The translations under genes were made by a program, and so were the position numbers. Source: a virus (taxonomy: Duplodnaviria > Caudoviricetes). Taken from it: DNA of 64,000 bases. The notes under the pieces were generated by a model that worked only from the letters and a program-made list of their open reading frames with translations, was not told where the DNA came from and did no database searches. Of the stretch, positions 2,056 to 23,142 are shown in pieces (within the stretch, counting starts at the first letter, position 1; every line of letters begins with the position of its first letter). The stretch is from positions 1 through 64,000 of IMG/VR virus record IMGVR_UViG_2882238243_000002. One strand, 5' to 3'.

Positions 2056-2135
2056 TTAATTCCTCCATTTCCTAAAAATAAAAGAAGAGCAGATTTAAAA
2101 ATCCACTCTTCTCACAATTCATTTTTTATAATTTA

Positions 2136-2435: not shown

Positions 2436-2455
2436 AATAATTCCTCCTGGTCTAA

Positions 2456-3288: not shown

Positions 3289-3401
3289 TTATTATCAATA
3301 ATCTGCTGCTTATCTTCTTCGGTAATCCACCCTTTTTCTACAGCTTTAGTTAGCACAAGTTCTCCATTTGATTTGTATAATCTAGTCAATGTATAAACCA
3401 T
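3285..3401 (-). CDS. XkdX-like small protein (38 aa, below the ORF-track cutoff)
   Basis: MVYTLTRLYKSNGELVLTKAVEKGWITEEDKQQII; the V.KGWIT.E motif is typical of XkdX; GGAGG RBS. Confidence 0.75.
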   Translation of the reverse strand: MVYTLTRLYKSNGELVLTKAVEKGWITEEDKQQIIDNN

Positions 3402-3402
3402 A

Positions 3403-3759
3403 TTACTCCACCTCCAAGCTATTTAAGATTAGGGCATCTACTGTGTCCTCAAGATACTTAATTCTCTTTGTTGTACTGTCAATGTTCTTTAAATTAAATG
3501 TTGCGACCAAGCTAACCACTTCTGCATCTTCATCCGTTACCGTCTCTAATTTTGCGCTAGAGAGTGTTTTATCTATAAAGGTATTGCATAACACACCTTC
3601 GTCATTTAAGAAGCTGATTTGCGACAAATTATCGTCTGTGAACTTATTGTAAAGTTCCTTGAAAGCATCCAAGCTTTCAACTTCCACACTGACAAAGTTT
3701 TCGGACGCTCCGTTCTGGATTTCAATTTGCTCGCCGCTTTTTAATTCTAATTTTTCCAT
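3403..3759 (-). CDS. Tail-associated hypothetical protein (XkdW-like position)
   Basis: Acidic ORF between the baseplate gene and the xkdX-like gene. Confidence 0.65.
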   Translation of the reverse strand: MEKLELKSGEQIEIQNGASENFVSVEVESLDAFKELYNKFTDDNLSQISFLNDEGVLCNTFIDKTLSSAKLETVTDEDAEVVSLVATFNLKNIDSTTKRIKYLEDTVDALILNSLEVE

Positions 3760-3852
3760 GATTGTTTCCTTTCTGCTCTTTTGAGCATAAAAATAAGACC
3801 GATTAAGGTCTTTGCTGTTACTTAGTTAAAGTGTGGATTACTATCTATGCGA

Positions 3853-6102: not shown

Positions 6103-6138
6103 AAAATCACTCCTTTCCTATATTAAAAAAGAGACTGA

Positions 6139-6384
6139 TTATTCAGCCTCTTGGTTATTTGTATTATTCTGTTCTTCTAATTGAGTGATTTTTGTATTAT
6201 ATTCCTCAATTTCTTTTTGGGCTTGTAAGTTGTTAGCTTCAACTAATTGTCCAAGCAAATCACGTAAGATATATGTTTTAATTGACAGTGAGAGAGGAGT
6301 ATTATTAATTAATTCTGCAAGCTCATTTGAAAAAATATTTATTTGCAAACTTTCTGGTACTTTAATATCTTCGATTTTCTGCAT
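6139..6384 (-). CDS. Hypothetical phage protein
   Basis: ORF with GAAAGGA RBS in the tail module. Confidence 0.7.
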   Translation of the reverse strand: MQKIEDIKVPESLQINIFSNELAELINNTPLSLSIKTYILRDLLGQLVEANNLQAQKEIEEYNTKITQLEEQNNTNNQEAE

Positions 6385-6531
6385 AGATTTCCTTTCATAG
6401 TAAAATATATAGTGTGTACTTCATGTTGACGAGTCAGTTTTTAATAGATATAATGATTGTATAGATATGTAAAAGATGGAATTTGTTTTTGGCTATACAA
6501 AGGGAGAATATAAAAATACGGAGGTTGAGAT

Positions 6532-7275
6532 ATGAAAAATATTATTATAAAAAAATTGTCGTTGTTAGCTGTTTTAGTTTTAATTATCAGTTTGATTGTG
6601 CCGAGTTTTACAACAACATCATTGGCTGTAAAATTACCTAAGAAGAGAACTGTGATATATTACAATACTATAGTCATTGCAAAGGGCGAGAATATAAATC
6701 AATACTTTTATAAAAGTGGTAAAGATTATACCAATAAAGCAAAATGGTCTACTAGTAATAAGAAAATTGCCACCATTGATAAAAACGGTAAAATCAAAGC
6801 AAAGAAAAAAGGAAAAGTTACAATAACTGCTAAATATGGCGGTAAGAAATACAAATGTATTGTATACGTTGTTAGTAGAAAAACGTTATACGAAGATAAA
6901 TATATTAAAATTCAAACCAAATATATGACTCAATCAAATAATGGAGCACTTCCAGAACAAATTGATGAAAAAGAATTAAAAGAAATAAAACTAAAAGTTA
7001 CAAATAAAACAGAAAAAGAATATTTATTTGGCGCTACCAAGCTTAAATTAAACAGTCGTAATTTAAAACTTGGATCGCGTGGATATGGGAATACTTATTT
7101 GGAACCTAAGTCCGCTAAAGACTGGAGTATTATTACTACATGGAGCTTTGGAGATGCCAAATTTCCAGAGAATATATCTAAGCTAAAAACCGTTACGGCA
7201 ACTTTTAAGTTAAGCGACAAAGACAGCAATAAGAAAATAAAAACAATTAACATAAAGAACAAAAAGGTGAAATAA
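6532..7275 (+). CDS. Secreted Lys-rich protein with Ig-like (Big_2) domain; moron
   Basis: Signal peptide; KWSTSNKKIATIDKNGKIKAKKKGKVTITA is a Big_2 motif; counter-oriented. Confidence 0.8.
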   Translation: MKNIIIKKLSLLAVLVLIISLIVPSFTTTSLAVKLPKKRTVIYYNTIVIAKGENINQYFYKSGKDYTNKAKWSTSNKKIATIDKNGKIKAKKKGKVTITAKYGGKKYKCIVYVVSRKTLYEDKYIKIQTKYMTQSNNGALPEQIDEKELKEIKLKVTNKTEKEYLFGATKLKLNSRNLKLGSRGYGNTYLEPKSAKDWSIITTWSFGDAKFPENISKLKTVTATFKLSDKDSNKKIKTINIKNKKVK

Positions 7276-7295
7276 CACGAAATAAAAGAGGCTAT

Positions 7296-7480
7296 TTAAA
7301 TAGTCTCTTTTAATTTATTTAATTCTTCATTTTGTTCTTGGACTGCCTTCCATAAAATAGCAATAGTTGAATATAAATCTATAGCATCTTTTTTTTCATT
7401 AATTAATTCACTCGGTGTTTCTCTTTCAACAATAAACCCATAGTTTAATCTATCAATACCCTTCTTTAAATCTTGTTTCA
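7296..7480 (-). pseudogene. Detached 3' fragment of the tail-tip gene (peptidase S74-like chaperone C-terminus)
   Basis: Removing the IS and one AAT copy rejoins ...IIYQYNL-KQDLKKG...YGFIVERETP...LWKAVQEQ in frame. Confidence 0.88.
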
Positions 7481-7563
7481 AATTGATGTTAGAATTTAAA
7501 TAGTACAAGTCAAAATGAGAAATTCCAATATAAAAAATTATGGTACAATACTTGTACTGAATC

Positions 7564-7863
7564 ATGGAGGGTCTCATTATGCCGAAGAACTATGACAAAC
7601 AATTTAAATTGGATTGCATCCAGTACTATCATGACCACAAGGAGCTTGGTTTGATTGGCTGTGCCAACAATCTTGGAATCAGCCACCAGTCTATATCAAG
7701 ATGGCAAAGAGAATTTCGTGAGACAGGTGATCTCGAATCTAGAGGCTCTGGAAATTTCTCTTCGGATGAAGAAAAGGAGATTGCCCGTCTTAAGCGTGAA
7801 TTGCGCGACACACAGGATGCACTTGATGTGTTAAAAAAAGCCATCGGCATTCTGGGAAAATGA
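7564..7863 (+). CDS. IS3 transposase OrfA (HTH)
   Basis: YDKQFK..ANNLGIS..ISRW HTH, EIARLKREL zipper; AAAAAAAG slippery site at 7833-7840. Confidence 0.92.
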   Translation: MEGLIMPKNYDKQFKLDCIQYYHDHKELGLIGCANNLGISHQSISRWQREFRETGDLESRGSGNFSSDEEKEIARLKRELRDTQDALDVLKKAIGILGK

Positions 7864-8774
7864 CGCAAGCCATTTACCTCGAAGTATCTGAGAAGACAGA
7901 AGCTTCCAAGAAAAACGGACGCCGTGTTTCTGTCTCCAGAGTGCTGCGAATCTTAGGCGTTTCACGATCGGGATATTTCGCATTTTTAAGAAAAACTCCT
8001 TCAAATACACTCGTACGAAAGAAAACTATAAAGGCCAAAATAAGAGAGATTTATGATGGCTCCAAACAAAACTATGGTGCTCCCAAAATCACCAAAGAGC
8101 TCAAAAAAAAGGGAGAAGTTATTGCAGAACGAACGGTTGGTACCTACATGAAGGAAATGGGAATTAAAGCGCAATGGGTAAAACCATGGACAATCACTAC
8201 AAAAGATTCTGATTTTAGTAACGAACTTCAAAATATCCTTGATGAACAATTCAATCCTGACCGCCCTAACGCTGTTTGGTGCACCGATATCACTTATATT
8301 TGGACCGTAGACGGATTTGTCTATCTGACAAGCATTATGGATTTGTATTCCAGGAAAATCATTGCATGGACACTTTCAGAAACGTTAGAGGTTTCTTGTG
8401 TAATTGATGCCATAACCAAAGCAAAAGCACGTCGCAAAACAGATCTTCCGTTGATTATACACAGCGATCGCGGCTCTCAGTATGTTTCAAAAGCCTACAA
8501 CGAAGCAACCGAAAATATGAAGCGTAGTTATTCAAAAAAGGCCTTCCCATGGGATAATGCATGTATTGAATCATTTCATGCACTCATAAAACGGGAGTGG
8601 CTGAACCGATTTCATATCCTCGATTTCGACCAGGCTTATCGCCTCGTATTTGAATATCTAGAGGCATTTTATAATACAAAACGTATCCACAGTCACTGTG
8701 ATTATATGTCACCAAATGACTTTGAAAAACTATATGAGCAGAGCCAAGATGGCCGCCTGCTTCTAGCAAGTTAA
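7860..8774 (+). CDS. IS3 transposase OrfB (DDE)
   Basis: WCTDITY, DLYSRKII, HSDRGSQY, DNACIESFH motifs. Confidence 0.95.
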   Translation: MTQAIYLEVSEKTEASKKNGRRVSVSRVLRILGVSRSGYFAFLRKTPSNTLVRKKTIKAKIREIYDGSKQNYGAPKITKELKKKGEVIAERTVGTYMKEMGIKAQWVKPWTITTKDSDFSNELQNILDEQFNPDRPNAVWCTDITYIWTVDGFVYLTSIMDLYSRKIIAWTLSETLEVSCVIDAITKAKARRKTDLPLIIHSDRGSQYVSKAYNEATENMKRSYSKKAFPWDNACIESFHALIKREWLNRFHILDFDQAYRLVFEYLEAFYNTKRIHSHCDYMSPNDFEKLYEQSQDGRLLLAS

Positions 8775-11700
8775 TGTGAGGAATTTTTTCTCATTTTAAC
8801 TTGTACTAAATCTTGACATAGGACCAAATTATATTGATAAATTATTGAATTGTTTACTAATGACAGCGCGGAATTATCATATGTTGATATGTTTGTTTTA
8901 ATCTTTTCAGTAGAAGATTCATATAACTTAGTACATGCCATATTACCAGTGCAACCTATATCACCTCCTTCTACATATATAGCATTATCTAGATAATCTC
9001 CGGGAGCTTCATTTCTACCAATAAGTAATTTGCCCCCATTTGTTATTTTTGTATATTTTGAGCCTTGTGTAGTTCCAAAAACAGCTTCGGTATGACATTG
9101 TATTTTATCTGAATCTAGCTTACCACCATTGAGATATACATCTCTAGCATTATCAACAAAAATCTCGCCATTCGTATAAATTTTACCACTACTTCCACAC
9201 TCAAATAAGTGCTTGCAATTGGCTTGTCTATTGCCTTTGTTATCAATTACTTCCTTGCCATTTACAGCGCACACATAATAATCCTTCGAACTATTTGTGA
9301 TTGAGAAGGTTGCTGCCTTTTTAACTTCAATATAAGCATCTTTGTCTTCATTTGGAGAAAAGTTAATTGTTGCGTAGTTTGTTCCTCCTTTTGAAAAATT
9401 TATAAAACCATCTTTGATAGTTACAATATTTCCTGTACTTGTACTTGTACAAGTCAATGTACCATATATATCTGCGTCAGTGCATGTTACCTTACCGGCA
9501 CTATCAACATAAAATTTACTGCCAACAGATAATCCAAGATTACCGTAATACATACTACCTGTCTTTTTGTAGTAAGGAGTGGCACTATTATCGTCATTTG
9601 CATTATAACCTGCCCGATAAATAGCGGCATTTGTTATATGCCAATCACCAAAACTAGATCCGCTTTCGGCAGTAAGAGTGCCTTTTATTGTAGCCTTATT
9701 TGCAACTAATTCCCCATCGTTATTTACAGAGAAAGTAATTCCTTTTGCAGTATTATAAATAGCGATACTTCCACCAACAATAGAATTACCAACAATTTCA
9801 GAACCACCAATATATCCCGCAATGACAGCTTCTGCTAAGAGTCCATATTTAGTTTGAGTTGTTCCAGAGATGTCTTTGTAGCTAAATTTACCTAATGCAG
9901 ATTTGGCTGTCTTAAAGTTATCATCAGAATAAAGAAATACATTGCCAGTTATCCAACCTTCTTCACCTGAATATGTAATATTACCCGAACCATCAGTAGA
10001 TTGAATTTTGCGTAAGTGAATGCCCGATCCATCCATTGTAACTTCATTCATATTACCTGTTGATTTTACTTGTGTTACCGCTGCATCCAAGCCTTCCTGA
10101 ATAATAGAAGAGAAGTCTTGAATTATATTCTTATTCTCATCTACAAAAGCCTTGTATTCGCTTATTGCATTTCCGGCAGTTACCGCATTAGCAAGTAATT
10201 CTGCATGTATATCTACCTCGGATCTCAGGCTAAGTAAATCTCCAAACTCACAACTAAAGTCTGTCAGATCGTCAAAGTTGAAAGTATAACCTAAAATTCT
10301 AACCTTTTTTACATAGTCTTTTCGAATTTCAACATTAATATAGTTGCCTAATTCAAACTTATCAGTAATTTTCTTAAAAGCTGGAATTGCAAAAATATTC
10401 TTCATTTCCATACTAAAAGATAATTGAGGAGAGGATATCTTTACTAGATTCTTGTAGGCTGCTTCATACAACTCTTGTTTTATTTCAACTCTCGTTTCAG
10501 CACTATCTGAGTCGTATACAGCGTAATTAGAGTCATCATACTCGTTCTCATGAATAAAACTCTCCAACTTTTGTTTCTGTTTTGTGGTTAGAAAATTGCT
10601 GATACTGGCACGCTGTACACAGGCGGTAACTTTAACTTGCGTTTCACTTATATATGTATCAATCGTAGTAAGTCGCTTATTCAGATTGACAATTGCATTT
10701 TTAACACCTAACTTCTTGCCAAGTGTCAGCATATACCCAGCATAAGTGGTTGGGTTTGTACTTTCGTGAGCTTTGTTTTCTAGTTGAACCGCAAGTACAT
10801 TTTCAAGAGAAGTCAATTCTGTATTAAGTTGGTACATTCCAAAATTGTCATAGTAAGTTGTTGTACTATTTGAACCCTCGGTTTCAGCATAATTATACCA
10901 AAACTGGGCAACATCTTTACCTTCTTTCATTTCCGTTTCGGCATCAGTTAAAGTATATATACGATTATACAAAGTTGATTTTAATGAACGATAATATACC
11001 AATCCTAATTCGCCGCTAGTATCGCCATTTAATTTTGTCTTTTCTATAGTTATAGAATTTTGAAGTGCCACTTTTGTAACAGTAGCAGTAGTGATACACT
11101 GATTTACCGCACGTAATTTTCCAACACACACTTTATAATCTTCATATTCTGTACCAGCTTCTTGTTCATAAATTTGAATTAAATCCTCTAATCGCTCTTT
11201 TTCAACTAATAATTGATTGTATCCAAAATTATCATAATACATTGCTGGGTGAGAAGAAGTCGGGTAGTTGATCCAAAAGCTGTTATCATATAGTCCATAT
11301 TCATCTGAAGCAACGGTACATATTTTATTTATCAACGTGTCAAGTTGAGTGGTGTAAGTTACTAAGTCGCTTACACCACCAACAGTAAGATTTTGATAAA
11401 TTACTTTTTCAATAGCAAAATTATCGAGATAATTCTTATATGCCACAACTAAATCTGCACCCATCCATTCATCAGTGTGGTAAAAGGATAAGTCAACTAT
11501 ATTTGATTGTCCGAGATTTAACTCTCTAATGTTAAGATTTTCGCCATCACTTCCTTTATCTTCTCCACCATTTACCTTTAAAGAAGTGATAATGTCATCA
11601 CACTTATAATCTACATTTATCTCTTTGATTAAATTTTGAAATGACACATAAATACTTGTATTTTCGCCTATGTTATCTTCCTCGTAGATATTAATTGTAT

Positions 11701-12304
11701 TATTGTAAGTATTAAATAGAAATACACAACCAAGAGAGTCGGATACGTTCTGTTTGAGAAAACTGTATACATCCTGATAATCTATACTGAAAGAGTGTTT
11801 TTTTGTTGTTAGTCCAATGTCAATATGCCCGATTGACCAAGCCGACATTTTTTCTAGACAAATATGCAAAAGACTTAATGATGTATTGTTCGTATTATAG
11901 AATTGCACATCATCGATACTATTATCTTCACCGGTATTAATATCAAAATCATCCAAGTATACCCTTGTAAACCTATATTCAAGGCTAAATGCAAGTATTT
12001 CTTTATATTCTTTACTGTCGCCTTCTTTGACAATTTTTGGTTCTTGAATTTCAAAATAACCTAATTCCTCTACATAAATCACACGCAAGGCTTCAATTTT
12101 GTCATAGTACGGACAAGTTATTCTATTACCGTTAATATCATAATAAGAACGCGGTACATTGAACGATAACTCATTTATATCGTTAAATTTTGCGGTAAAA
12201 TTTAACTCATTTACCTTTAATGCTCCAATTAAAGATTTATCTACTTCACATAGATAGACATTTGGATATTCGACTACATCAAATGGATTAAAACGAAATG
12301 ACAT
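8771..12304 (-). CDS. Large tail-tip/tail spike protein (Tal-like), truncated by IS3
   Basis: Follows Dit; prophage-tail-like N-terminus; SSTEKIKTNI start of the chaperone domain; last ~17 aa come from the IS. Confidence 0.82.
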   Translation of the reverse strand: MSFRFNPFDVVEYPNVYLCEVDKSLIGALKVNELNFTAKFNDINELSFNVPRSYYDINGNRITCPYYDKIEALRVIYVEELGYFEIQEPKIVKEGDSKEYKEILAFSLEYRFTRVYLDDFDINTGEDNSIDDVQFYNTNNTSLSLLHICLEKMSAWSIGHIDIGLTTKKHSFSIDYQDVYSFLKQNVSDSLGCVFLFNTYNNTINIYEEDNIGENTSIYVSFQNLIKEINVDYKCDDIITSLKVNGGEDKGSDGENLNIRELNLGQSNIVDLSFYHTDEWMGADLVVAYKNYLDNFAIEKVIYQNLTVGGVSDLVTYTTQLDTLINKICTVASDEYGLYDNSFWINYPTSSHPAMYYDNFGYNQLLVEKERLEDLIQIYEQEAGTEYEDYKVCVGKLRAVNQCITTATVTKVALQNSITIEKTKLNGDTSGELGLVYYRSLKSTLYNRIYTLTDAETEMKEGKDVAQFWYNYAETEGSNSTTTYYDNFGMYQLNTELTSLENVLAVQLENKAHESTNPTTYAGYMLTLGKKLGVKNAIVNLNKRLTTIDTYISETQVKVTACVQRASISNFLTTKQKQKLESFIHENEYDDSNYAVYDSDSAETRVEIKQELYEAAYKNLVKISSPQLSFSMEMKNIFAIPAFKKITDKFELGNYINVEIRKDYVKKVRILGYTFNFDDLTDFSCEFGDLLSLRSEVDIHAELLANAVTAGNAISEYKAFVDENKNIIQDFSSIIQEGLDAAVTQVKSTGNMNEVTMDGSGIHLRKIQSTDGSGNITYSGEEGWITGNVFLYSDDNFKTAKSALGKFSYKDISGTTQTKYGLLAEAVIAGYIGGSEIVGNSIVGGSIAIYNTAKGITFSVNNDGELVANKATIKGTLTAESGSSFGDWHITNAAIYRAGYNANDDNSATPYYKKTGSMYYGNLGLSVGSKFYVDSAGKVTCTDADIYGTLTCTSTSTGNIVTIKDGFINFSKGGTNYATINFSPNEDKDAYIEVKKAATFSITNSSKDYYVCAVNGKEVIDNKGNRQANCKHLFECGSSGKIYTNGEIFVDNARDVYLNGGKLDSDKIQCHTEAVFGTTQGSKYTKITNGGKLLIGRNEAPGDYLDNAIYVEGGDIGCTGNMACTKLYESSTEKIKTNISTYDNSALSLVNNSIIYQYNLVLCQDLVQVKMRKNSSH

Positions 12305-13116
12305 TAAAAATCACCTATCTTTCTTATAAATCTATATTTAAACTCAATTGTACCAGTACCGCTGATTTCAAGATTATTTATTCCAGATTTCATTTCAACC
12401 CACTTAAGATTAAACATATCTTGAATTGGACGATATGTGCTGGTGTCATCTGTAATAATTTGATTAAAATTGTCTATTACAATAGTTTCAGCATTAACTA
12501 ATCCAGTTAATTGTGTAACTCTATTTGTAGACATATTTTTAATTGTAAAAATTGAGCTTGTGTTTGAAACTAAAGCGGGAGTAGCAATAGTAACAATAGG
12601 ACATAAATATCCCTCATAATCAGAGTCGTTGTAAAATTCCATTTTAAATGGAATATCCAATGTGTGATTAATCTTATACCTTTCAGTTTTCTCACTAGAA
12701 AATGAGAATGGTGAAGTGCAAGTCCATGCTAATTCCAATCCGGCAACCTGACTACCTATTTTCTTTTTTGTGATATTTGTACATCTACAATGAAAGTTAA
12801 TATCCTCAATTTCTTTGTCAAATACCTCTAACCACTGAGGCTTATTAAGACCTAATAACCATTGAGATATTTCTCTAATCTGTGACCTTGTAAAATATGA
12901 ATTATTTTTATGAACAACCTGAATTTTAAATTCTAGAACTCCACTGTATTTTATACCATAATCAGTTAAAAAAGGAGAGTGTCCTTCATCAGAAATGACC
13001 TCAATTTCTAACCCTGTATCGGCATCATAAAGTCCCGAATCATCAAATGAGGCAATACATAATCCAAAATCTCTCGAATCATATCCATTATAATTAAAAG
13101 AACTTCCGTAAACCAT
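12304..13116 (-). CDS. Distal tail protein (Dit)
   Basis: FNYNGYDSRDFGL...CTSPFSFS...GINNLEISG; downstream of the tape measure gene; AGGAGG RBS. Confidence 0.85.
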   Translation of the reverse strand: MVYGSSFNYNGYDSRDFGLCIASFDDSGLYDADTGLEIEVISDEGHSPFLTDYGIKYSGVLEFKIQVVHKNNSYFTRSQIREISQWLLGLNKPQWLEVFDKEIEDINFHCRCTNITKKKIGSQVAGLELAWTCTSPFSFSSEKTERYKINHTLDIPFKMEFYNDSDYEGYLCPIVTIATPALVSNTSSIFTIKNMSTNRVTQLTGLVNAETIVIDNFNQIITDDTSTYRPIQDMFNLKWVEMKSGINNLEISGTGTIEFKYRFIRKIGDF

Positions 13117-13207
13117 ATTAATCCTCCTTTCATCATAGTTTCGCTTATTTATATCATAAAAATCCACCCAACCTAGATGGACTGAATTACCGTTTTTTGC
13201 ATCAAAA

Positions 13208-13260: not shown

Positions 13261-13788
13261 TTATCTTAGTTTCATATACATTGGAACACAATTTTCATTA
13301 AAATGTTCCCTTGGAATTTCTTCAAAACAATTATTTATACAATCGAATTTTAACTTTTTATAAAATCCTTCTGCTTTGGGATCTGCACACAAAACAATAT
13401 ATTTTACACTTGAAACTTCGTTTAGCTCGTTTGCTGTATTTATTGCACTCATAACCATTATTGTACCAATTTTATTATTGACATATTCTTTGTGAACGGC
13501 AAGTTCTGATATTTCTAAAGCAGGATAACCATGTTTTTTGCAACCGTCTACGTCTTTGATTAAAGAAGACATTCTTAATGTTATGTATCCTATAATTTTT
13601 TCATTATTAGAATCATCTGCTTCTATAAATAGATATGTAACTCCGTGTCCGTTATTTAAATCTAAAAGAGCATTATATTTTAAATAGTCTTCATAGTGTT
13701 GTGGGTTATCACACATGTCCTCAGAAACTTTAAATGCCCACGCTAGTTCTATATTTTTTGTGTTGATTTTCGTTTGATAGCGTTCCAT
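13261..13788 (-). CDS. GNAT acetyltransferase (TacT/AtaT-like toxin candidate)
   Basis: PALEISELAVHKEY..KIGT and AEGFYKKLKF motifs; ATG overlaps the upstream TAA. Confidence 0.8.
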   Translation of the reverse strand: MERYQTKINTKNIELAWAFKVSEDMCDNPQHYEDYLKYNALLDLNNGHGVTYLFIEADDSNNEKIIGYITLRMSSLIKDVDGCKKHGYPALEISELAVHKEYVNNKIGTIMVMSAINTANELNEVSSVKYIVLCADPKAEGFYKKLKFDCINNCFEEIPREHFNENCVPMYMKLR

Positions 13789-14000
13789 TACCTTTTTGGA
13801 TATTTTGCCGCAACTTTTTTGCAAGCTTCTAAAAATTCCTTAGATACTACCTTTTCTTCACATTTGTTATCTGTTTTTACTTTTACTTCATATACATAAT
13901 TTCTTGCTACTGCTGACATAATATCATCCCCTTTATTCTTCTTCGGTTCACTTTGTTCATTTTCGTTTACTTTTTTATTATCCATGATTTGTTCCTCCAA
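13788..14000 (-). CDS. Small protein coupled to the GNAT gene (antitoxin candidate; alternative start 13919)
   Basis: TAATG overlap with the GNAT gene; AAAGGGG RBS before 13919. Confidence 0.6.
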   Translation of the reverse strand: MEEQIMDNKKVNENEQSEPKKNKGDDIMSAVARNYVYEVKVKTDNKCEEKVVSKEFLEACKKVAAKYPKR

Positions 14001-14306: not shown

Positions 14307-17300
14307 TCAGGAACCACTCTTTTTTAAAGAATAGTTCAAAGTCTTGAATGTTTTATTAATCTGAGCTGTGACGACCGACTTTATTTCATTTAAATTAGAG
14401 TCGCTTACACTTCCTTCAATATTGACCAAATTTCCAATCTGTACAGTTTTACTTGAGGAATTTGTTGTTACATTTGGAGCAGAAGATAGAATATTACTGG
14501 ACAACGTATTACCAAATAAAGAACTAGGACTAATATCCCAATCTGCCAATCTAAAAAGATTATCAGTTTGTTTTTTAGTGAGGACTTGGTCTCCCTCCTC
14601 CATTATTCTCCATTTTCCGGACTGTGCCTTACCCAGAATTAATTCTGCGCCTTCTTCATCGACATTAGCTAGTCCAGCTTTTGCACTTCGAGTTCCGTTT
14701 TTATAAGCTGATACAGAAACGGTTTTCCCTTTTGTTTTGGCATAACTTGTAGCAATTTTCTGTGCATATGCTTCAGCTTCGGCTTTAGAGGAGAACTGTT
14801 TAATTACAGTCCCACTGCTGTCAACAACTTGGTATCCATTTACTTTGCTCGAACTTCCACCACTTGAAGAACTACCAGAGCCACTAGAACTAGAAGAACT
14901 ACCGCTTGATGCATCAGGGATGTCAGCAGTACCAACACTCTGACTATTTAAAGCATTTAAAATACTTGTAGCTGCCTTATCAGCAGATGCGGCGATATCA
15001 TCAATCGCATCTTTTACATTATTTAGTTCGCCTACAAATGCGCTTGAAGCACTCGAAAGAGTTTCACCATAACTAGCAATAGCACTCTCTCCTTGTGTCC
15101 AAGGGTTCATAATTGCATCAGATACAGTGAGATTATATTCGCTTGCTAATCCGTTCAATGTCGAATATACAGTTTCATAGTTTGCTTGAACTAAAGCCAA
15201 AGAAGTAGAAATTAATAATTCTTCATTTTTTAGACTTGCTTCCAATGTGTCAATTTCGGACTGCTTTGTTTCTTTGTATTTCTTTAATTCAGCATCTAAC
15301 GCATCAACTGCCGCATCATAAGCATTATCATGATAGGTATCATCTAAGTCTGATTGAGCATCAGCCAACTCTGCTTCAAGTTTTCTACGTTTTGCCACTC
15401 CAGAAACACTAGTATCTCCAGACAAAGCATCAATTTTACTTTGTATCGTATCAACGTTATCTTGTTGTTCATTTAGCTTTTTCTGTAATTGATATTCTTC
15501 TTCAGCAACTTCTAATGCTTCTTTTCTCTTTTCGATTAACTCTTCATAAGCATCTATTTCATCTTCAATTATAGATTTGGCAGCTTCCACACGTTCTTTA
15601 TTTAATTCGATTATTGCCTGACGTTCTTCTTCAGCAGCATTTACCGCTTCAAGTTGGGCAGCCTTTAATTCATTGAGCTTCTCCATATATTCCGTTGTGG
15701 AATATTTACCCTTGCGATAATCCTTTTCTAAATCGTCGATAGCTTTTGCATATTGTTGTGCCTTGTAGGTACTTGTTTCATACTGTTGAGCCAAAAGTGC
15801 AAGAGAAGTAATACCTGCGTCAGACCAACTTCCGTCCTCATTAGTCATGGACTTATTGTCGAGCAAATCCATTAGTCCGTCAATTTCATTTGATATATTG
15901 TCAATCTGATCCGTCAACAATTCGAACTTTTCCCATTTGAGATCATTAATTGCATTTTGAAATTCTTCAATCTCAATGGTACACTGCATGATTTCGTCTT
16001 TGGTGTCTTCGATACCCTGAGTTAATTTATACCAATTTTCATCATACTTATTAATTGTACCATTAGCTAATCCGTCATCTAATAACTTTTGATACTCGGA
16101 GATTTTCTTATTTAAAAGAGACATCTCTTTATTTGATTCAGATATTAACTCTTTATACAACTTAGACGATACTAAATTGCCTTTTGTTTCTTCAAGTTTA
16201 AGAGCATTTTGAATTTTCTCTAAACGGTCAGTTAGAAGAGTAGACATCTTATCGTAATCAGACTCTAATTTAGAAATTGCATCAGCCAGTTCTTCAACGG
16301 CCGTCTTAGCTTCTTTAGCTGCCTTTTCTGCATCCTTTAAGTTATCAGCCAATGCATCTGCCGTTTTTGCGCCACCTGAATAGTCAATAGAAGGAGCCGA
16401 ATTTGATAATGAAGTCGTTGATTTTAATGCACTATCTAAAGCGGCTTGTGCCTCTGATAAAGCATTTTTCTTCATTATCTCCATATCTGCTTGGCTTGTT
16501 CCGCCCATTCCAATCTGACCGGATTTAGCAGCATTATAAATGCCAATAGCGGTAGTAGCTCCACCGAGTGCTGCAACAAGAGCTTGCAGATTTTGAATGT
16601 CAGAGGCCGTGCCTAAGACATTTTCACTAGCTAATTCTTTTTGTAATGCATAAATATAAAGAGCTTTAGCTGTTTCACCCGTAATCTTTTCTTCATTTAT
16701 TAATGCCTGAACCTCTTGATATGTAATATTCGCAAGGTCAATGCCACGCTGAGCGGCAATAGCTTTAAGTTGAGCATATTGGTCGATTGTTAATCCTAAT
16801 TGTGAATAGACATATTCCTCTGCATTGACAACACCCATTTCTTGTAGTGCCTGAACTACAAAGTCAGCTGTAGCTAAGGTCAAGTTATCCATTGCGCCAC
16901 TGTTATTGATGTATTCTGTAGTTAAATCACTAAATGCTTGTTGTACTTCTTCAGCAGTAGAAGCAGTATTGGATATAACAGAGGCAAAATTTTCAAATCC
17001 ATCTAGTTCACCAAAAACTTCGTTGAGAGAAGTTAAATCAGAGAAATCTATTTTGTCATCGTTTGATATGATTTTTGCACGGGCTTCATCTAGCTTTGTC
17101 ATTCCATCTGAAATTTTAGACAGCGAATCGATTGCATCAGAAGTATTTAAATCTCCAATACGGTTTGATGTTTCTAAAATTTGATCTGCAATAGCGGTTA
17201 TACTGTCAGTTAATTCAGTAGGAGCAGAAGTACCTAAAGTTTGTAATAATGCCTTTAATTCGTTGCTTATGAGTTGTTTTATTGCACCTTGTAGATTATC

Positions 17301-19130
17301 AGTTTCACCGGAAAGTGTTGGAAATTCTTGAATTAAATCTACCAAGTCTGAGTCTGAAAAATCACCAGATTTCAAACTTTCTAAAGTCGTAGAAAGTGAA
17401 GATACTTTTGACTGAAAATTATCTATTGCGGTTGACTGGTCATCGGTGAGAGAGAATGAAATTGGGTTTTCATTTGACGATGTGTTTTTTACACTTTCAT
17501 ACATATTTACAGCTTGTGCAGCACTTTCTGCACCATCTGTTACATCATTCCAATAATCGACCTCTTCACGAGTATTTATTGAATTTTCTTTAAAATAAAC
17601 ATCTAAATCTACAGTACTCGTGTTATCTTTGAACTTATTAATAGCACTTTTATAGTCAGCTACTAAAGTGTCAGTATCTTCAAAGCCTAAAGCGATTTTT
17701 AATTGGAGCTTTCCTTCTTCACCAAGATTAAGAGCATTTGCAATTTCTGTTAAAATAACATCAATTTTTTGCTGAATTTCTTCTGGTGATAACGTAGTTG
17801 CATCAAGATCTAAATTAAATAACTCATTAAACGCATCATTAACTCCATCTTTGTTGTCTTTCAGCGAAGAGATAAGGCTATTTACAAAGTTTTGCATACC
17901 TTCTTCTGTATCTAAATTATTAGTATCAACAAAAGCTGGAGTAATTCCATTTAACAATGTTTGAAAGTATGTTTGTAGTTCTGAATCTAATCCCCAGTAA
18001 TTGTCAGACATTTTTCCGTATGTGATAGCAGTAGAAGCAATTTGAGCCATCTGTGTGTCTATATCAGTCTGTAACCCCTGTAAGTCTGTTTTAATATTTT
18101 GACGAACAGTTTCAATTTCTTGGTCTGTGCTATCTTTATCTAGTCCATATTGCCTTAATATATTGCCTAATATAGAATTATTTTCTTCAACACTTCCTTC
18201 AGAATAATGAAGATATCGTTTTGTAGATAATCCTACTAAATCTAAATTACTTAACTTGGATAACTGTTCAAGAAAATCAAGCTGTTGATTTCTGGAAACT
18301 TTTGTATCATAATAATTTGCAAGTAACTTCCAATCATATGATGGCATTGAAGAAGCTGACTTGGAGTTCTTATAATTATCAAATATTGATTCAACGTCAC
18401 CGTCGTTGTATGTTTTTATTGCCTCGTTTTGCTTGTATTTTTCATATTCGGCATTTAAGTCAGCTAAATTTCCTTTGACAGTTAGTATTGCATTTCCTTG
18501 ATCATCATAGCCCTTTACTAAATCAGGTATAATACTGGCAACCTGATTACAAATATCTTGATAGCGAGAATATTCGTCGGTCGTTAATGATACATTTTCT
18601 CCAAGTCTATTTACTCCATCTGAAAGAGCCTTATATTCATCATTAAGTTCAGAAATAGTAGAAGAGTTTGAATTTTGATTTTCTTTTAAATCATTAAAAG
18701 TATTTGTTAGTTCTTCTGCATTTTTCCTTGCTATATTTGCTTGATTTGCAAAGTTATACAGTCCCTCAACAACTTTTGAAACGACGATAGCTATCGCCAT
18801 CCCGGCTATCATATTACCTGCAAGTGCAAGCCCCTTTAATGCCACTGTACTTGCTTTAGTAGCTACAGTTGTTTGTTCAATAGAAGCTCTAAATCCTTTT
18901 TCTGTTAGCTCACCAGCTTTAGCTGTCTTAGCATAATTTACAACTGAACTGTCAACTTCTCCGTAAGTTTCAGATAAAGCCTCTGCACTTAATCCGGTTT
19001 CCATCATTTTTTTTCTGAACGCTGTAAATTGAGGAATTAAATCATCTACATTTTTTTGTACACTCTTTAACGAATTTATCCACGTTTTTATTCCAGTTAC
19101 ACTTTTTGTAGTATCATTATATTTGAATAT
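14307..19130 (-). CDS. Tape measure protein, exon 2
   Basis: Long helical/coiled-coil ORF ending YKNGT..A.VDEEGAELI (typical tape-measure C-terminus), directly upstream of Dit; no SD before the TTG at 19133. Confidence 0.88.
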   Translation of the reverse strand: MFKYNDTTKSVTGIKTWINSLKSVQKNVDDLIPQFTAFRKKMMETGLSAEALSETYGEVDSSVVNYAKTAKAGELTEKGFRASIEQTTVATKASTVALKGLALAGNMIAGMAIAIVVSKVVEGLYNFANQANIARKNAEELTNTFNDLKENQNSNSSTISELNDEYKALSDGVNRLGENVSLTTDEYSRYQDICNQVASIIPDLVKGYDDQGNAILTVKGNLADLNAEYEKYKQNEAIKTYNDGDVESIFDNYKNSKSASSMPSYDWKLLANYYDTKVSRNQQLDFLEQLSKLSNLDLVGLSTKRYLHYSEGSVEENNSILGNILRQYGLDKDSTDQEIETVRQNIKTDLQGLQTDIDTQMAQIASTAITYGKMSDNYWGLDSELQTYFQTLLNGITPAFVDTNNLDTEEGMQNFVNSLISSLKDNKDGVNDAFNELFNLDLDATTLSPEEIQQKIDVILTEIANALNLGEEGKLQLKIALGFEDTDTLVADYKSAINKFKDNTSTVDLDVYFKENSINTREEVDYWNDVTDGAESAAQAVNMYESVKNTSSNENPISFSLTDDQSTAIDNFQSKVSSLSTTLESLKSGDFSDSDLVDLIQEFPTLSGETDNLQGAIKQLISNELKALLQTLGTSAPTELTDSITAIADQILETSNRIGDLNTSDAIDSLSKISDGMTKLDEARAKIISNDDKIDFSDLTSLNEVFGELDGFENFASVISNTASTAEEVQQAFSDLTTEYINNSGAMDNLTLATADFVVQALQEMGVVNAEEYVYSQLGLTIDQYAQLKAIAAQRGIDLANITYQEVQALINEEKITGETAKALYIYALQKELASENVLGTASDIQNLQALVAALGGATTAIGIYNAAKSGQIGMGGTSQADMEIMKKNALSEAQAALDSALKSTTSLSNSAPSIDYSGGAKTADALADNLKDAEKAAKEAKTAVEELADAISKLESDYDKMSTLLTDRLEKIQNALKLEETKGNLVSSKLYKELISESNKEMSLLNKKISEYQKLLDDGLANGTINKYDENWYKLTQGIEDTKDEIMQCTIEIEEFQNAINDLKWEKFELLTDQIDNISNEIDGLMDLLDNKSMTNEDGSWSDAGITSLALLAQQYETSTYKAQQYAKAIDDLEKDYRKGKYSTTEYMEKLNELKAAQLEAVNAAEEERQAIIELNKERVEAAKSIIEDEIDAYEELIEKRKEALEVAEEEYQLQKKLNEQQDNVDTIQSKIDALSGDTSVSGVAKRRKLEAELADAQSDLDDTYHDNAYDAAVDALDAELKKYKETKQSEIDTLEASLKNEELLISTSLALVQANYETVYSTLNGLASEYNLTVSDAIMNPWTQGESAIASYGETLSSASSAFVGELNNVKDAIDDIAASADKAATSILNALNSQSVGTADIPDASSGSSSSSSGSGSSSSGGSSSKVNGYQVVDSSGTVIKQFSSKAEAEAYAQKIATSYAKTKGKTVSVSAYKNGTRSAKAGLANVDEEGAELILGKAQSGKWRIMEEGDQVLTKKQTDNLFRLADWDISPSSLFGNTLSSNILSSAPNVTTNSSSKTVQIGNLVNIEGSVSDSNLNEIKSVVTAQINKTFKTLNYSLKKSGS

Positions 19131-19203
19131 CAAATTTGCTTGGAGGCACTATATAATATTTTTTTATTTTATGATACAATATAAAAAAAGTAGGGGGATT
19201 TTT

Positions 19204-19617
19204 ATGAGCGATATATATTTATGTACTAAATGTGGGTATTTTAAATTCTTTTTCAAAAAACCAGAAAGTTGCAATATTTGTGATGGTGATGTTGTCGAAA
19301 TCACAACTCTAGATGACTACACTTTTGCACACATGACCGACACTGAAAAAGAGCAATTCGCAATCAACTATGTAGGTCACGATTTTGATCCCGTACTTAA
19401 AAATAAACGTATAGATTATGATGCAAATAGGAGAGCAGAGATACGAGAAAATTCTAATAAATTTGAAGCAACACATCCTGAATGTCCTTATTGTCACGGA
19501 AGAGACACTAAGAAAATTACAACAACTGCAAAAGCAATAAATACAGTTGTGTTTGGATTACTAGGAACCAAAAGACATAAACAATTTCATTGTAATAATT
19601 GTAAGAGTGATTTTTAA
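19204..19617 (+). CDS. Double Zn-ribbon hypothetical protein (intron cargo, antisense)
   Basis: CTKC..CNIC and CPYC..CNNC; AGGGGG RBS before ATG 19204. Confidence 0.75.
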   Translation: MSDIYLCTKCGYFKFFFKKPESCNICDGDVVEITTLDDYTFAHMTDTEKEQFAINYVGHDFDPVLKNKRIDYDANRRAEIRENSNKFEATHPECPYCHGRDTKKITTTAKAINTVVFGLLGTKRHKQFHCNNCKSDF

Positions 19618-19723
19618 ATATTTTTATTTATCGGCAATGAAGTAATTTATATTTTCACATTAAAATAAGATAAAAAATGAACTTCAACCGAGAATGAACT
19701 GAGTTATCATATTTTTGCATATA

Positions 19724-19756
19724 AAAAGCACCTTCAATTAAATGAGGTGCTTAAAA
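19724..19756. terminator. Bidirectional terminator between convergent cargo genes
   Basis: AAAAAGCACCT-tcaattaaatg-AGGTGCTTAAAAA. Confidence 0.75.
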
Positions 19757-19766
19757 ATTTATGTAT

Positions 19767-20267
19767 TTAGTTTTGTTCTTCTGTTGCAGCTACTTGGGCT
19801 TTTATGTCATAATTTAAATATATCGATTCTAATAATTTGAAATCACAACATGCATAATTGAGTTTATGATTTTTGTTACATCCTATTTTATATACAGATG
19901 TAGCCTTTTTGTAGATTTCATCCTTATGTTTTAAACAATACATATATTCCGAATACAACAAGTCTGCATATTTTTGATCTTGTTTCGCAATCTCTTTAAA
20001 TTTTTTTTCGACTAGCACGTTGTCATACGCTGGTATCATAAAAGAAAATTTTATCGTTGAGATGACTTTGTCATCTTGAAAAATTTGTAAGTTTGTTTGT
20101 TGTTTATTTGTAATATGAGAAATGGGAGCATAATAAGCTATCCCATTACATTTAAATACAACTCCACAGACAAATTTATTATTGGTTGAGTATTCTATAT
20201 TTGGCACTTTCTTATCAAATTTTTGCAGATATTTAACATAATCTTTATCAATATCGTAAAATTTCAT
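19767..20267 (-). CDS. toxN: Type III TA toxin, ToxN/AbiQ family endoribonuclease
   Basis: MKFYDIDKDYVKYLQKFDKKVPNIEY..KFVCGVV..YYAPISH..IKFSFMIP..CCDFKLLE; downstream of a repeat array and terminator. Confidence 0.9.
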   Translation of the reverse strand: MKFYDIDKDYVKYLQKFDKKVPNIEYSTNNKFVCGVVFKCNGIAYYAPISHITNKQQTNLQIFQDDKVISTIKFSFMIPAYDNVLVEKKFKEIAKQDQKYADLLYSEYMYCLKHKDEIYKKATSVYKIGCNKNHKLNYACCDFKLLESIYLNYDIKAQVAATEEQN

Positions 20268-20289
20268 TATATTCTCCCATATGTACAAT

Positions 20290-20316
20290 AAAAGAGCGAA
20301 GATATTATCCTCGCTC
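20290..20316 (-). terminator. toxI-toxN internal terminator
   Basis: GAGCGAGGA-taata-TCTTCGCTC-TTTT on the minus strand. Confidence 0.85.
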
Positions 20317-20317
20317 C

Positions 20318-20430
20318 GCATTAAGCTTTCACCTTTTCGGTAGTGAGACACCTAGCATTAAATCCTTCTGTCACGGTCGAAGAACACCTCGCATTAAACC
20401 CTAACTTATGGTGCTAGAAACCAAGCATTA
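20318..20430 (-). ncRNA. toxI: ToxI-type antitoxin RNA: three degenerate pseudoknot repeats
   Basis: UAAUGC linker recurs at 34/36/37-nt spacing; each unit has a GGU..ACC stem 1 and a pairing stem 2. Confidence 0.85.
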
Positions 20431-20525
20431 CTTAAATTAAAAATTATATTATAATAGGCATTTGCCCAGTATAAACATTTATTAAACGTTAGATAATTGA
20501 TAACGTTATCACTTCTTGTATGTTT

Positions 20526-20554
20526 ACTATAACACAGTAAAGTAGAATACACAA
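20526..20554 (-). promoter_or_regulatory. Candidate host-RNAP promoter for toxIN
   Basis: TTGTGT-17-TATAGT with extended TG; a second TATAAT at 20448-20453. Confidence 0.5.
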
Positions 20555-21168
20555 TAGTTTTTATGAACAAAAGTTCAATATATTTGTTAAAAAACTGCCC
20601 AAACGGTGAACTACCCACAAGCTAAAGCTAATGGGATTTCTGACGGTTTTCTTGTTAAATTTCATCACTAGATGTACTATTAAAATAATAGAAGAGTAGT
20701 AGAACTCTTTAGAACAATATAAAAATTTGCCTCCAAGCAAGTGGCTAACGACGCCACCACAAAGTAATATCCATAATTCCCTTGTGTTTTGGACTGTATG
20801 TTTTGAGCTAATCAACTTAGCCCAGGATTGTCAGTCTCTGGGGCGTAACCCATTCGTTAATAAACGAGTTGTTCTACGCCTGCTTTCCTCTATAAAATAG
20901 AGTACCTATAGACCCTCCCTTAAACAGAATAAAAATATGGTCTGCCATATGTATATGTCTTTTGAACTTATACAAAATCAATATGTTTTTTCCGGATTTC
21001 TCCACCATTGCCGTATATTTGTTTCCAAATTCCGTTTTGGTATATTGATATAGTGGGGGAGTTCCCAGCATATTCTCCACGTAAAAGTCTGTTATCTTTC
21101 ATTTACTACGTTACACGAACGGTGCTTATAGTAAAGGGCAATTCAAATTATGAAAACTTGAGTGTTTT

Positions 21169-23142
21169 ACCTACGTCTTTTGCTCCTAATATAGAGCCTA
21201 TTCCCGCTCCCAAAGTTCCTAATGGAGTAAGAAAATCTACAATTCCAGTCCCCGCTTTTGTTAAAGCAGTACCAAAATCTATGAAAAAGTTTACTAGTCC
21301 AGAATCGAGCATAGTATTAGCAAATTCAATACCTGCATTCTTCATTTTTTCTAGATGAGCAGTTGTTGATTCCTGATAAGCATTGAATTTATCCATTGCT
21401 TGTCCAGAGGAATTTAATGATGCATCAGTATATCTAAGAGCCGTGTCATAGTTGTTCATCAACACAAGGAAGTTTTCCATGTGGTTTACACCGGCAAAAG
21501 CACTAGCAATTGCTCTTTGCTGAACGTCTGAATAAGTACCCCAATTAGCACCAGTTTCATCTAATACTTCATCAAAATCTCTAAAAGTATCCATAGAATC
21601 TCTTAAAGAAATTCCGACACCTTTAAGAACCGTTTCAACATTACTTAAATCTTCACCTGAGTTCTGATAATCTTTTAATCTTGCTAATTTAATATTACCC
21701 ATTCGTGAAAATACAGCATTAAGTGATGTTCCCACTTCAGACATGCTAGATTGAGTTACTTCACCAACAACTGCAGCATAACCAAGCAACTTGTCCATGC
21801 CTACACCGGCTAAGTTGGCATTATTAGCAACTTGACTCATTGCCTCGGCTAATCCACCTACGTCGGTTGCTGATATCAAGTCGACCGCCGACAATTTATC
21901 TACCACATCTAATGTATCTTTTGCGGCTACATTGTAACCTTTCATTGCACTGGTAAGGTATTTGGTACTATCCGCCGTTGACAATTTTCCGATTTTTGAT
22001 AGTACTATTGCATCTGTAATAAGTGTTTCAGTATCGGCTATACTTTGTCCCTGTTTTAACCATTCAGTACCAGATTCAGTAATGTCAATGACAGTAGCAC
22101 TTAATTTATCTCCTAATTGTGAATATGAATCCATATAAGATTCTATTTGCGTCTTGGAAGCACCAGTAGCCATAGTTAAGTCGGTTATTGCGTCATTAGT
22201 TTCCTTAACTGCTTTTGGGATTTTCTGTATTTGGTAAACTAATCCCATGACGGCAGAACTTACAGATATCCATTGAAGGAAACTATCTCGCGCTTGCGTT
22301 AATTGGTCTTTTACTGAAGCTCCAAGTTTTCCAATGCTTCGCATAGAATTTTCAGCAGTTTTAAAACCATTAACAATTTCGTTAAATTGCATTTTGGTCA
22401 TTTGAGAGTTTAGGGCTCGTAAACTGTCTATATATGCTTGGTTTGCAGCTCTAACAGACTTTGTTGCTCTAGTATTTTTTAGGTTCCACGCTTCAATAGC
22501 ATCAGCCTTACTTAGTCTTTGTTGGTTTGTGACTAATAAGCTATATTCAGAGCGAAGCATAGATAAGTCATTTTTTGTTTCACCAATCGCAGATTGAAGT
22601 TTGTCAAACTGTGCTACAATCGCAATATCATCGCCACTTTCCATAATAGATTTTAGCTGAGTAAACTCAGTATTTACAGACGACATTTTCTTTTCTACAG
22701 TTTCACTAGAAAGCCCAAGTTTAGTAAAACTGTTTGTAATGGTCTGTATTTGCGCAGTAGTGTCTCCGTTGTCACCAACAAGTACTTGAATCTTATCAAG
22801 CTTTTGATTTAATGCATTTTTAGTTCTTTGAGCTGTTTCCTCTGCCTTCTTTGCTGTTTTTTCTAGCTCAGTTTGCAAACGTCTATTGTCACCTATTACC
22901 TGATTTATAGTTTTTTCAATAGTCTTGTCATCAATTTTAATATCAATACCTGTGACCTTTTTCAATTCAGCTTCAAGTTCAGGTAATATTTGTTTAACTG
23001 TTTTTATTAATTCAGCTTTATTTAAGTCAGCAGCTAGATTTAAGTGATATTTATCTAAAACTTTTTGAACTTCTGAGATGTCTGATTTTCCAATTCCACT
23101 TGAATCTAAGACTGCTTGTAGTAGGACTTTAAATTCATCCAT
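21169..23142 (-). CDS. Tape measure protein, exon 1 (TP901-type domain); unspliced ORF runs to 21148
   Basis: EWLKQG..LSKIG..LTSAMKGY..VVDKLSAVD..GLAEAM..VGTSLNAVFSR motifs. Confidence 0.92.

Follow-up and report, generated by a model that had tools for sequence, protein, structure and literature searches.

A putative group I intron carrying a toxin–antitoxin cassette in the split tape measure gene of an SPbeta-like prophage

Phage group I introns of the T4 nrdD/sunY type carry a single endonuclease gene between the ribozyme core and the 3′ splice site. Group I introns have also been described in tape measure genes: in Bacillus cereus-group prophages, TMP-IVS1, TMP-IVS2 and TMP-IVS3 occupy three sites in this gene, as reported in 2008, and IVS3a and IVS3b differ from each other but have both adapted, through P1 and P10, to a single homing site (PMC2504315). 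In Vibrio phage ICP1, the tape measure gene contains an HNH-carrying intron whose splicing was shown by RNA sequencing and reverse transcription PCR (PMC10448857), and spliced introns also occur in capsid and tail genes of Cluster J mycobacteriophages (PMC3706429). IStrons such as CdISt1 and BcISt1 have a 5′-ribozyme/3′-cargo layout, and the same source mentions group I introns that carry up to about 20 kb of extra genes (PMC4227781). Our study concerns a 64,000-nucleotide stretch of the Caudoviricetes record IMGVR_UViG_2882238243_000002 (positions 1 to 64,000; hereafter the window), in which 2,038 bases separate two minus-strand open reading frames (ORFs), ORF-A and ORF-B. This insert is most probably a functional or recently functional group I intron within one 2,265-codon tape measure gene of an SPbeta-like prophage. 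Comparison of the sequence with its relatives reveals that the gene is split, that a group I-type fold is conserved and co-varies, that splice-site bases are conserved, and that the loop closed by a clamp holds variable cargo of defence type.

Like the published tape-measure introns (PMC2504315, PMC10448857), this element is a self-splicing-type intron in an essential tail-length gene, and several introns are adapted to one site, here with at least five sequence types. The published introns are a few hundred bases long, or carry a homing endonuclease or its remnant, and belong to subclass IA1 or IA2, whereas the window intron carries a toxin–antitoxin system and an antisense zinc-ribbon gene; unlike them, it has one hairpin (P8) between P7 and P7′ and is missed by the Rfam model RF00028. 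With IStrons (PMC4227781), it shares a 5′ ribozyme, foreign genes between core and 3′ splice site that would be removed as a unit, and an insertion that would be harmless. IStron cargo, however, is an IS200/IS605-type transposon that moves the element into many unrelated genes, whereas the window element has a fixed codon, no transposase and defence-type cargo. The place of the insert is the same as in the T4 nrdD/sunY type, but here two or more unrelated genes lie on both strands, and the insert extends to as much as 8.3 kb in a related locus, L256. The initial annotation knew of no description of the arrangement. In open-access article text, we found no toxin–antitoxin or defence system reported in a group I intron; introns in tape measure genes and the IStron layout were already published.

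The two ORFs read as parts of one gene (Table 1). ORF-A (23142–21148) encodes 664 residues, 658 of them up to the junction, and ORF-B (19133–14307) encodes 1,608 residues from a TTG at 19133. Exon 1 ends GAC GUA GGU, with U at 21169, and the unspliced frame runs on for six further codons to UAA at 21150–21148; AUA UUC AAA, directly after G19131, begins exon 2. Removal of the insert joins 658 and 1,607 codons in frame, and the sequence and ORF list agree with the exon ends, codons, frame and arithmetic first given in the initial annotation. ORF-A contains a PhageMin_Tail domain (PF10145, E 2.5e-24), and its best matches in 215 records of annotated phages, all below 60% identity, are tape measure genes of SPbeta-like Bacillus phages at 26–27% identity. 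On the tape measure profile phrog_4211 (2,625 positions), ORF-A aligns at 551–942 and the first 500 residues of ORF-B at 907–1367, which marks the two frames as consecutive pieces of one family. The expectation that uninterrupted homologues would be colinear across the junction is borne out by this profile and by most of the 26 long uninterrupted homologous frames that we examined in viral contigs and genomes. Seventeen of them contain an ORF-A-like part and then an ORF-B-like part, in order, four have the last 75–139 residues of ORF-A followed by ORF-B, and five match ORF-B only. In L024, a related locus that lacks the intron, ...KNVG continues straight into ITQL.... At the nucleotide level, a megablast search of positions 18300–22000 against phages gave no match and a DNA search in 60 relatives gave only short matches, and a single-protein search for related loci in genome contigs yielded no confirmed stretch (0 of 90).

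The junction with exon 2 is conserved. Among 29 homologous starts of the ORF-B part (21 distinct sequences), the base before exon 2 is G in every case, although just 8.9% of the preceding 200 bases are G. The codon closed by this terminal G is ATG in 10 junctions, TTG in 6, GTG in 1, ACG in 9, GCG in 1 and TAG in 2. The 12 junctions with ACG, GCG or TAG have no start codon there, and the next in-frame start lies 31–99 codons downstream; their frames are nonetheless open for 1,100–2,700 codons. As initially annotated, exon 2 has no Shine–Dalgarno sequence of its own: by reading of the sequence, nothing purine-rich precedes TTG 19133, unlike the toxN gene (GGGAGA) and the zinc-ribbon gene (AGGGGGA) inside the insert. 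The IFNYDK-type relatives are counted in this 3′ junction tally only; a search for their 5′ junction by means of the P10 complement found nothing convincing.

The 5′ junction is matched by an internal guide that sits 21–32 bases into the intron. G21139 faces U21169 in a U·G wobble, C21138–C21137 pair with G21170–G21171, P1 cells are 90% paired, and the U·G and the two G–C pairs are kept in all four close relatives (the set of the window element). The initial annotation had correctly recognized the U·G pair with the guide but made P1 too long: only GCC (21139–21137) pairs with GGU, and the next bases, UUUACUA (21135–21129), form a strand of P2. Compensatory P2 variants in three relatives (UUUGCUA/UAGCAAA, UCUGCUA/UAGCAGA and UUCUCAU/AUGAGAA) identify the strand GCCCUUUAC as GCC of P1 plus the start of P2. 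The P10 strand of the guide varies in step with exon 2 in L109, L023, L026 and L256 (Table 1). In one intron type at the same site (L043, L035, L038 and L034), exon 1 ends in GGC rather than GGU and the guide is ACCGAC; read by eye, C opposite A would there replace the U·G at the 5′ splice site.

A group I-type core comprising P2 to P9 lies within the first 440 bases of the insert, and the elements named in the initial annotation, the 8-bp P10 guide, P4, P6, P7, P8 and a weak P3 of about 3 bp, are all present. Only 4 bases separate P7 from P3′, one hairpin (P8) precedes P7′, and neither P7.1 nor P7.2 is seen. Subclasses IA1 and IA2 are defined by the extra helices P7.1 and P7.2 between P7 and P3′, and the window intron falls outside them. 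L233, L154 and L109 are close relatives of the window element at the same tape-measure codon, and for these four sequences RNAalifold predicts 99 pairs, of which 41 show compensatory change. We scored the group I layout as P1, P2, P3 (as a pseudoknot), P4, P5 with its extension, P6–P8, P9 and P9a, in total 87 pairs in 17 helices. Over the four sequences, 94.2% of 346 cells pair, a value that none of 500 shuffles reaches, compared with a shuffled mean of 80.7% and 35–44% with slid partners. Both sides change in 38 of the 87 pairs, where shuffles average 14.0 (again none of 500 reaches the value) and slid partners give 2–7, in a score that uses four sequences only and a layout partly derived from the same four. 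Changes on both sides affect 4 of 7 pairs in P9 and 4 of 5 in P9a.

With a search pattern made from the P7–P8–P7′ region, viral contigs yielded L109, genomes 16 loci and metagenomes 85. Roughly a dozen of the matches fell by chance in coding DNA and were removed by eye before alignment; the remaining cores are subfamilies that share one architecture, in which P7, being the search pattern, was unable to vary. P3 is GGA/UCC in the window, AGG/CCU in L154 and GGC/GCC in L109, and in the wider set it takes forms such as AAACC/GGUUU, UAACC/GGUUA, AGGUC/GACCU, GGCG/CGCC, GGCA/UGCC and CGGAA/UUCCG, with at least 10 different complementary sequences at one place across 43 cores. The mean P3 helix with a core's own partner is 4.08 bp, compared with 3.12 bp for foreign partners (25 distinct combinations), a modest difference from a window-based comparison; the MAFFT alignment of the 43 cores puts one subfamily's P4′ and the P8 of our element in the wrong place. 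P4 is UGCU/AGCA in the window element and UGCG/CGCA in another subfamily. A blastn search of the core against phages returned chance-level matches only (E about 6), and two DNA patterns run on viral contigs returned L109 and otherwise only chance matches in coding sequence. A second copy of the 3′ part of the L154 core, 95% alike over 287 bases, lies elsewhere in the same genome (L255, G327:C8:130749-131035).

The core is connected to the distant 3′ end by a long-range helix that we call the clamp. No inverted repeat in the 2.1-kb region is longer than the one that contains it, which spans 31 nt at 77% and has a perfect 13-nt core. The 5′ strand of L256 is ...GGCGGCA, and its partner GCCGCC... 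lies 8.3 kb downstream, four bases before the terminal G; an A-to-C change in one strand is matched by a U-to-G change in the other, a double compensatory change. L109 has another 7-bp helix (UGUGGUA/UACCACA) in the same two places. The clamp closes around the cargo, which thus forms the loop at the end of a peripheral helix, an arrangement shared with other group I introns that bear ORFs.

By its family matches and layout, the cargo of the window intron is a ToxIN/AbiQ type III toxin–antitoxin system together with an antisense zinc-ribbon gene. ToxIN/AbiQ systems have a standard layout of promoter, tandem repeats, terminator and toxin gene. The toxin matches PF13958 (E 3.5e-35, 122 bits against a cut-off of 25), PADLOC AbiQ (E 5.3e-28) and phrog_9764 (E 9.8e-30), in agreement with the initial proposal of a toxin–antitoxin system in place of a homing endonuclease. 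As in other ToxIN/AbiQ systems, a ToxN-family toxin is preceded by three repeats of 34–36 bases and a terminator hairpin; unlike them, the system lies inside a putative intron of a phage structural gene, in sense with the late transcript, and its repeats have diverged. The three repeat cores of 15–19 bases are only 73–87% alike, Tandem Repeats Finder reports no array in 20250–20650, and no Rfam antitoxin family matches. A second terminator-like hairpin on the sense strand, at about 19752–19723, was recognized by eye. The promoter-like sites are consensus matches only, with 15 in the region compared with 12.4 expected from shuffles. The initial annotation had spoken of a silent cargo bay. The varied cargo of relatives, described below, backs the cargo bay; it would not be silent, as toxIN has a promoter-like site and a terminator of its own.

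ToxN and a zinc ribbon are the only insert ORFs with family matches, and no IS200/IS605 or other transposase is among them. The window copy of the zinc-ribbon protein has no family in Pfam, PADLOC, PHROGs or NCBIfam and only unnamed clusters in Atlas, and its profile matches in the PDB are generic zinc ribbons at E 0.01 or weaker. Conserved columns among its homologues are only Cys, Gly and Pro. That this protein is a homing endonuclease was rejected, with little firmness, on the grounds that no acidic or histidine column is conserved. A group II intron and a recombinase-excised element were also considered and set aside: no reverse transcriptase or recombinase family was found among the insert ORFs of 68–194 residues that were scanned.

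In a comparison that the initial annotation had proposed, related phages have the gene split at the same codon and carry different cargo. We found 13 such inserts of 1.05–5.8 kb, in addition to those of L109 (2.7 kb) and L256 (8.8 kb), and all of them lie after ...(K/R)(N/D)(V/I/A)G and before I/V/T-F. In 13 loci, the ORF-A part ends in ...(F)K(N/D)(V/I)G and is followed by a short unrelated tail and a stop. Homologues of the zinc-ribbon gene are present in all 14 inserts with both ends defined, each antisense and with its start beside the 3′ splice site; L256 has two copies, and the intron-less L024 has one upstream of the gene. The other cargo varies. The L035 insert contains ToxN again and a PemK-type toxin, the 4.2-kb insert of L026 a CptIN-family toxin, and those of L036 and L038 a weak TenpIN-like toxin (E 1.1e-07; 32 bits, cut-off 90). 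L028, a locus where the 5′ junction was not found, has a full TenpIN gene (NF047358, E 7.9e-45) some 3.5 kb upstream of its exon 2 start. GmrSD_N/NsnA genes occur in 7 inserts and DUF3800 in 3, and DUF3825 and DUF6173 also occur. The L256 intron (418-9184, G327:C7; 8,767 bases) is of the window type, at the same codon and with TAG before exon 2, and it contains a helix–turn–helix regulator, an N6/N4 DNA methylase and several ORFs without a family besides its zinc-ribbon genes. The 1.05-kb intron of L023 is without an internal cassette.

Further features were seen in and near these loci. Just downstream of the CptIN-family toxin of L026, and like it inside the intron, is a skipping-rope RNA (RF02924, 74.7 bits; L026:8499-9088). 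Directly upstream of the TenpIN-family toxin, L028:4806-5422 contains two tandem 6A RNA motifs (RF02925; 58.1 and 26.2 bits), and this motif may be the antitoxin repeat of that system. L028 also has a 367-residue ORF at 3051-4151 that by eye resembles TnpB/IS200-IS605 OrfB, some 4.8 kb ahead of where exon 2 starts (8925), which hints at an IStron-like relative. The same tape measure family is broken elsewhere, before ...NRAN..ASLLQNW... in seven loci (L040, L055, L065, L070, L077, L082 and L083), and a 1.7-kb insert with a 411-residue zinc-finger ORF interrupts the ORF-A part in L026:12126-13842; such other conserved breaks are probably further intron sites. In another genome of the same bacterial family, a phage of this kind has a group I intron of a different family, RF00028-positive at 63 bits (L258, G139:C113:54991-55343), about 7.5 kb upstream of a 2,439-codon tape-measure-like frame. 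In the window, the tape measure gene is directly followed by a GNAT acetyltransferase ORF (PF00583, E 3.6e-09) and an overlapping 70-residue ORF without a family (13261–14000, minus strand), beyond which lies a Dit-like tail gene (DUF6558) at 12304–13167.

Table 1 Features of the split tape measure gene, its putative intron and the cargo, in window coordinates, with P10 pairings of the window and related loci.
Feature	Position	Strand	Details and basis
Exon 1, tape measure gene	21169..23142	minus	658 codons, ATG 23142 to GGU 21169; ORF list, PF10145, phrog_4211
Intron (putative)	19131..21168	minus	2,038 bases, A21168 to terminal G19131; sequence and same junctions in relatives
Exon 2, tape measure gene	14307..19130	minus	1,607 codons and stop; ORF list, phrog_4211, homologues
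Internal guide	21137..21148	minus	AUUUGAAU 21148-21141 with exon 2 19128-19121 (P10); GCC 21139-21137 is P1
P10, window			guide AUUUGAAU, exon 2 AUUCAAAU; 8 pairs, offset 2
P10, L109			guide CGAAUGU, exon 2 ACAUUCG; 7 pairs
P10, L023			guide UUAAAUAU, exon 2 AUAUUUAA; 8 pairs
P10, L026			guide UUUUGAAUAU, exon 2 AUAUUCAAAA; 10 pairs
P10, L256			guide UGAAUAU, exon 2 AUAUUCA; 7 pairs
P2 hairpin	21102..21135	minus	UUUACUA 21135-21129 with UAGUAAA 21108-21102; 3 of 7 pairs changed on both sides, four sequences
Catalytic core	20791..21078	minus	P3-P8; pair counts, likeness to RF00028 consensus
P3	21078-21076 with 20827-20825	minus	GGA/UCC, 3 bp
P4	21070-21067 with 20884-20881	minus	UGCU/AGCA, 4 bp
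P5	21061-21057 with 20919-20915	minus	plus P5 extension
P6	20880-20874 with 20848-20842	minus	GGCGUAG/UUACGCC
P7	20838-20832 with 20796-20791	minus	G(A)GACUG/CAGUCC
P8	20824-20817 with 20811-20804	minus	UGGGCUAA/UUAGCUCA
P9 and P9a hairpins	20741..20786	minus	P9 20786-20780 with 20764-20758; P9a 20757-20753 with 20745-20741; RNAalifold
Clamp, 5′ strand	20728..20740	minus	UUGCUUGGAGGCA, right after P9a; top inverted repeat
Clamp, 3′ strand	19136..19148	minus	UGCCUCCAAGCAA, five bases ahead of terminal G
Promoter-like site, toxIN cassette	20448..20475	minus	TTTATA, 16 nt, TATAAT; 10 of 12
ToxI-like antitoxin RNA repeats	20346..20430	minus	three units spaced 36 and 34 bases; repeat search, 6-base seed
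Terminator-like hairpin between repeats and toxN	20293..20317	minus	11 pairs, then T run
toxN/abiQ toxin gene	19767..20267	minus	166 codons from ATG 20267; PF13958, PADLOC AbiQ, phrog_9764
Double zinc-ribbon gene, antisense	19204..19617	plus	136 residues; start 73 bases from 3′ splice site

We propose that these parts would act together as follows. The ribozyme, P1 to P9a, fills the first ~440 bases of the insert, and the 13-bp clamp, pairing 20740–20728 with 19148–19136, would loop out the 1.6-kb interior and return the terminal G19131 to the core. When the late tail operon is transcribed, guanosine would attack after U21169, held by the GGU/GCC P1, and the guide AUUUGAAU would then align exon 2 through P10. 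Joining of the exons in cis would bring ...KDVG next to IFKY... and yield a full-length tape measure protein of 2,265 residues. The late transcript would have to read through two internal hairpins on the way. The loop would be a cargo slot, here with a self-contained ToxIN/AbiQ cassette and the antisense zinc-ribbon gene as the constant resident of the site. We infer that the intron splices and that toxIN defends; in the lysogen, toxIN could act as an abortive-infection defence.

Several observations weigh against reading the insert as an intron. The hit of a group I covariance model that the initial annotation expected did not materialize: RF00028 finds nothing in 2.5 kb or in 481 bases, whether its gathering score or E values up to 10 are applied, and its three sub-threshold matches in a whole-genome search all lie outside the intron region, whereas the model works elsewhere, scoring above cut-off in 2 of 14 control genomes and 2 of 121 genomes of the same bacterial family. 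P1 has only three exon pairs and 1–2 intron pairs, P3 (3 bp) and P4 (4 bp) are very short, and the covariation score has the narrow four-sequence basis given above. Seventeen of the 29 junctions, the window included, have ATG, TTG or GTG just before exon 2, and a separate translation of ORF-B is possible there. The 120 best protein homologues of ORF-B are 1,350–2,400 residues long, only one of them also matches ORF-A, they start only about 40–65 residues ahead of the aligned part, and many database homologues begin M-IFKT..., like ORF-B from its own TTG. A late transcript must read through both terminator-like hairpins, which come after the core and before the 3′ splice site, and the zinc-ribbon gene is transcribed against that transcript.

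The silence of RF00028 extends to the related loci, with matches in 0 of 5 and 0 of 13. In the window, the core segments come in the same order as in the RF00028 consensus and resemble it: gAAUUGCGGgAAAcCcc in the consensus compared with GAAUAUGCUGGGAACUCCCC in the window for J3/4–P4–J4/5–P5, CCGCAG compared with AGCAGG for P4′, UUCAaAGACUA compared with CCAGAGACUG for the P7 strand and AAGAUAUAGUC compared with AACAUACAGUC for J8/7–P7′. The window family departs from the model in that P5′ and P4′ are separated by about 40 extra bases, P5 has a 150-base extension, and P3 and P4 are short. Because all 13 related cores were missed and the segments match the consensus, we read the miss as a limit of sensitivity rather than a refutation, with the extra bases and the short P3 and P4 as a plausible cause. 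The junction codons suggest that the 'M' before IFK in databases is often a gene caller's reading of the last three intron bases.

Three other explanations were weighed against the intron reading. ORF-A and ORF-B could be two separate genes around an accessory ('moron') island, the former ending at UAA 21148 and the latter starting at TTG 19133, with the pairings being relics or chance. The M-IFK starts of many public homologues, the start codons at 17 of 29 junctions, the near absence of ORF-A from the 120 listed ORF-B homologues and the failure of RF00028 would all fit this arrangement. Nevertheless, we regard it as very unlikely, given the missing Shine–Dalgarno sequence before 19133, the 12 junctions with ACG, GCG or TAG and their long open frames, the invariant G at −1 in G-poor sequence, the co-variation of guide, P2, P3, P9 and clamp alike, and the unbroken homologues that read straight across.

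A decayed group I intron in a defective prophage, which would no longer splice and would leave the tape measure gene broken with only the cargo under selection, is in our judgement unlikely. The P3 and P4 of the window are short, relatives have a P3 of 4–6 bp, and the terminator-like hairpins inside the intron would also suit decay; however, both exons are intact frames of 658 and 1,607 codons, the closest relatives (L233, L154/L256 and L109) keep the short P3 with compensatory change, the 94% of cells that pair indicate continuing selection on the fold, and the clamp is perfect over 13 bp. Trans-splicing, in which the exon 1 transcript would stop at the toxIN terminators and a second transcript starting in the cargo would bring the 3′ clamp strand, the G and exon 2, seems extremely unlikely. 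Although the clamp and the internal hairpins fit such a scheme, no promoter for the 3′ piece was identified among promoter-like sites that barely outnumber those in shuffles (15 versus 12.4), and the 1.05-kb intron of L023, at the same site and without a cassette, needs no such scheme.

With cis-splicing of a group I intron as the preferred reading, a broader proposal can tentatively be made, which we consider possible although not the likelier outcome. This tape-measure codon of large gut Lachnospiraceae phages may be a dedicated, ribozyme-protected 'defence slot', in which at least five group I ribozymes with interiors of 0.6–8.3 kb would exchange ToxIN (window, L035), CptIN (L026), TenpIN-like systems, NsnA/GmrSD-type nucleases, MazF-type toxins and restriction–modification-like genes. 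The zinc-ribbon protein would move or regulate the element, and splicing would couple virion protein expression to the removal or processing of the defence RNA.

If the intron splices, a temperate phage can park defence genes in an essential structural gene without breaking that gene. Simple deletion of such a slot would kill the phage, and recombination between related phages could refill it; self-splicing introns would then join prophage hot spots, satellites and integrons as carriers of anti-phage systems. The range of size and content of bacterial group I introns would widen, with 2 kb here and 8.8 kb in L256. These cores form a ribozyme family that escapes the standard Rfam model (0 of 13 detected), and as a consequence annotation calls such tape measure genes 'split' or 'hypothetical'. 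Finally, the co-varying clamp offers a testable case for how a ribozyme finds a 3′ splice site that lies kilobases away.

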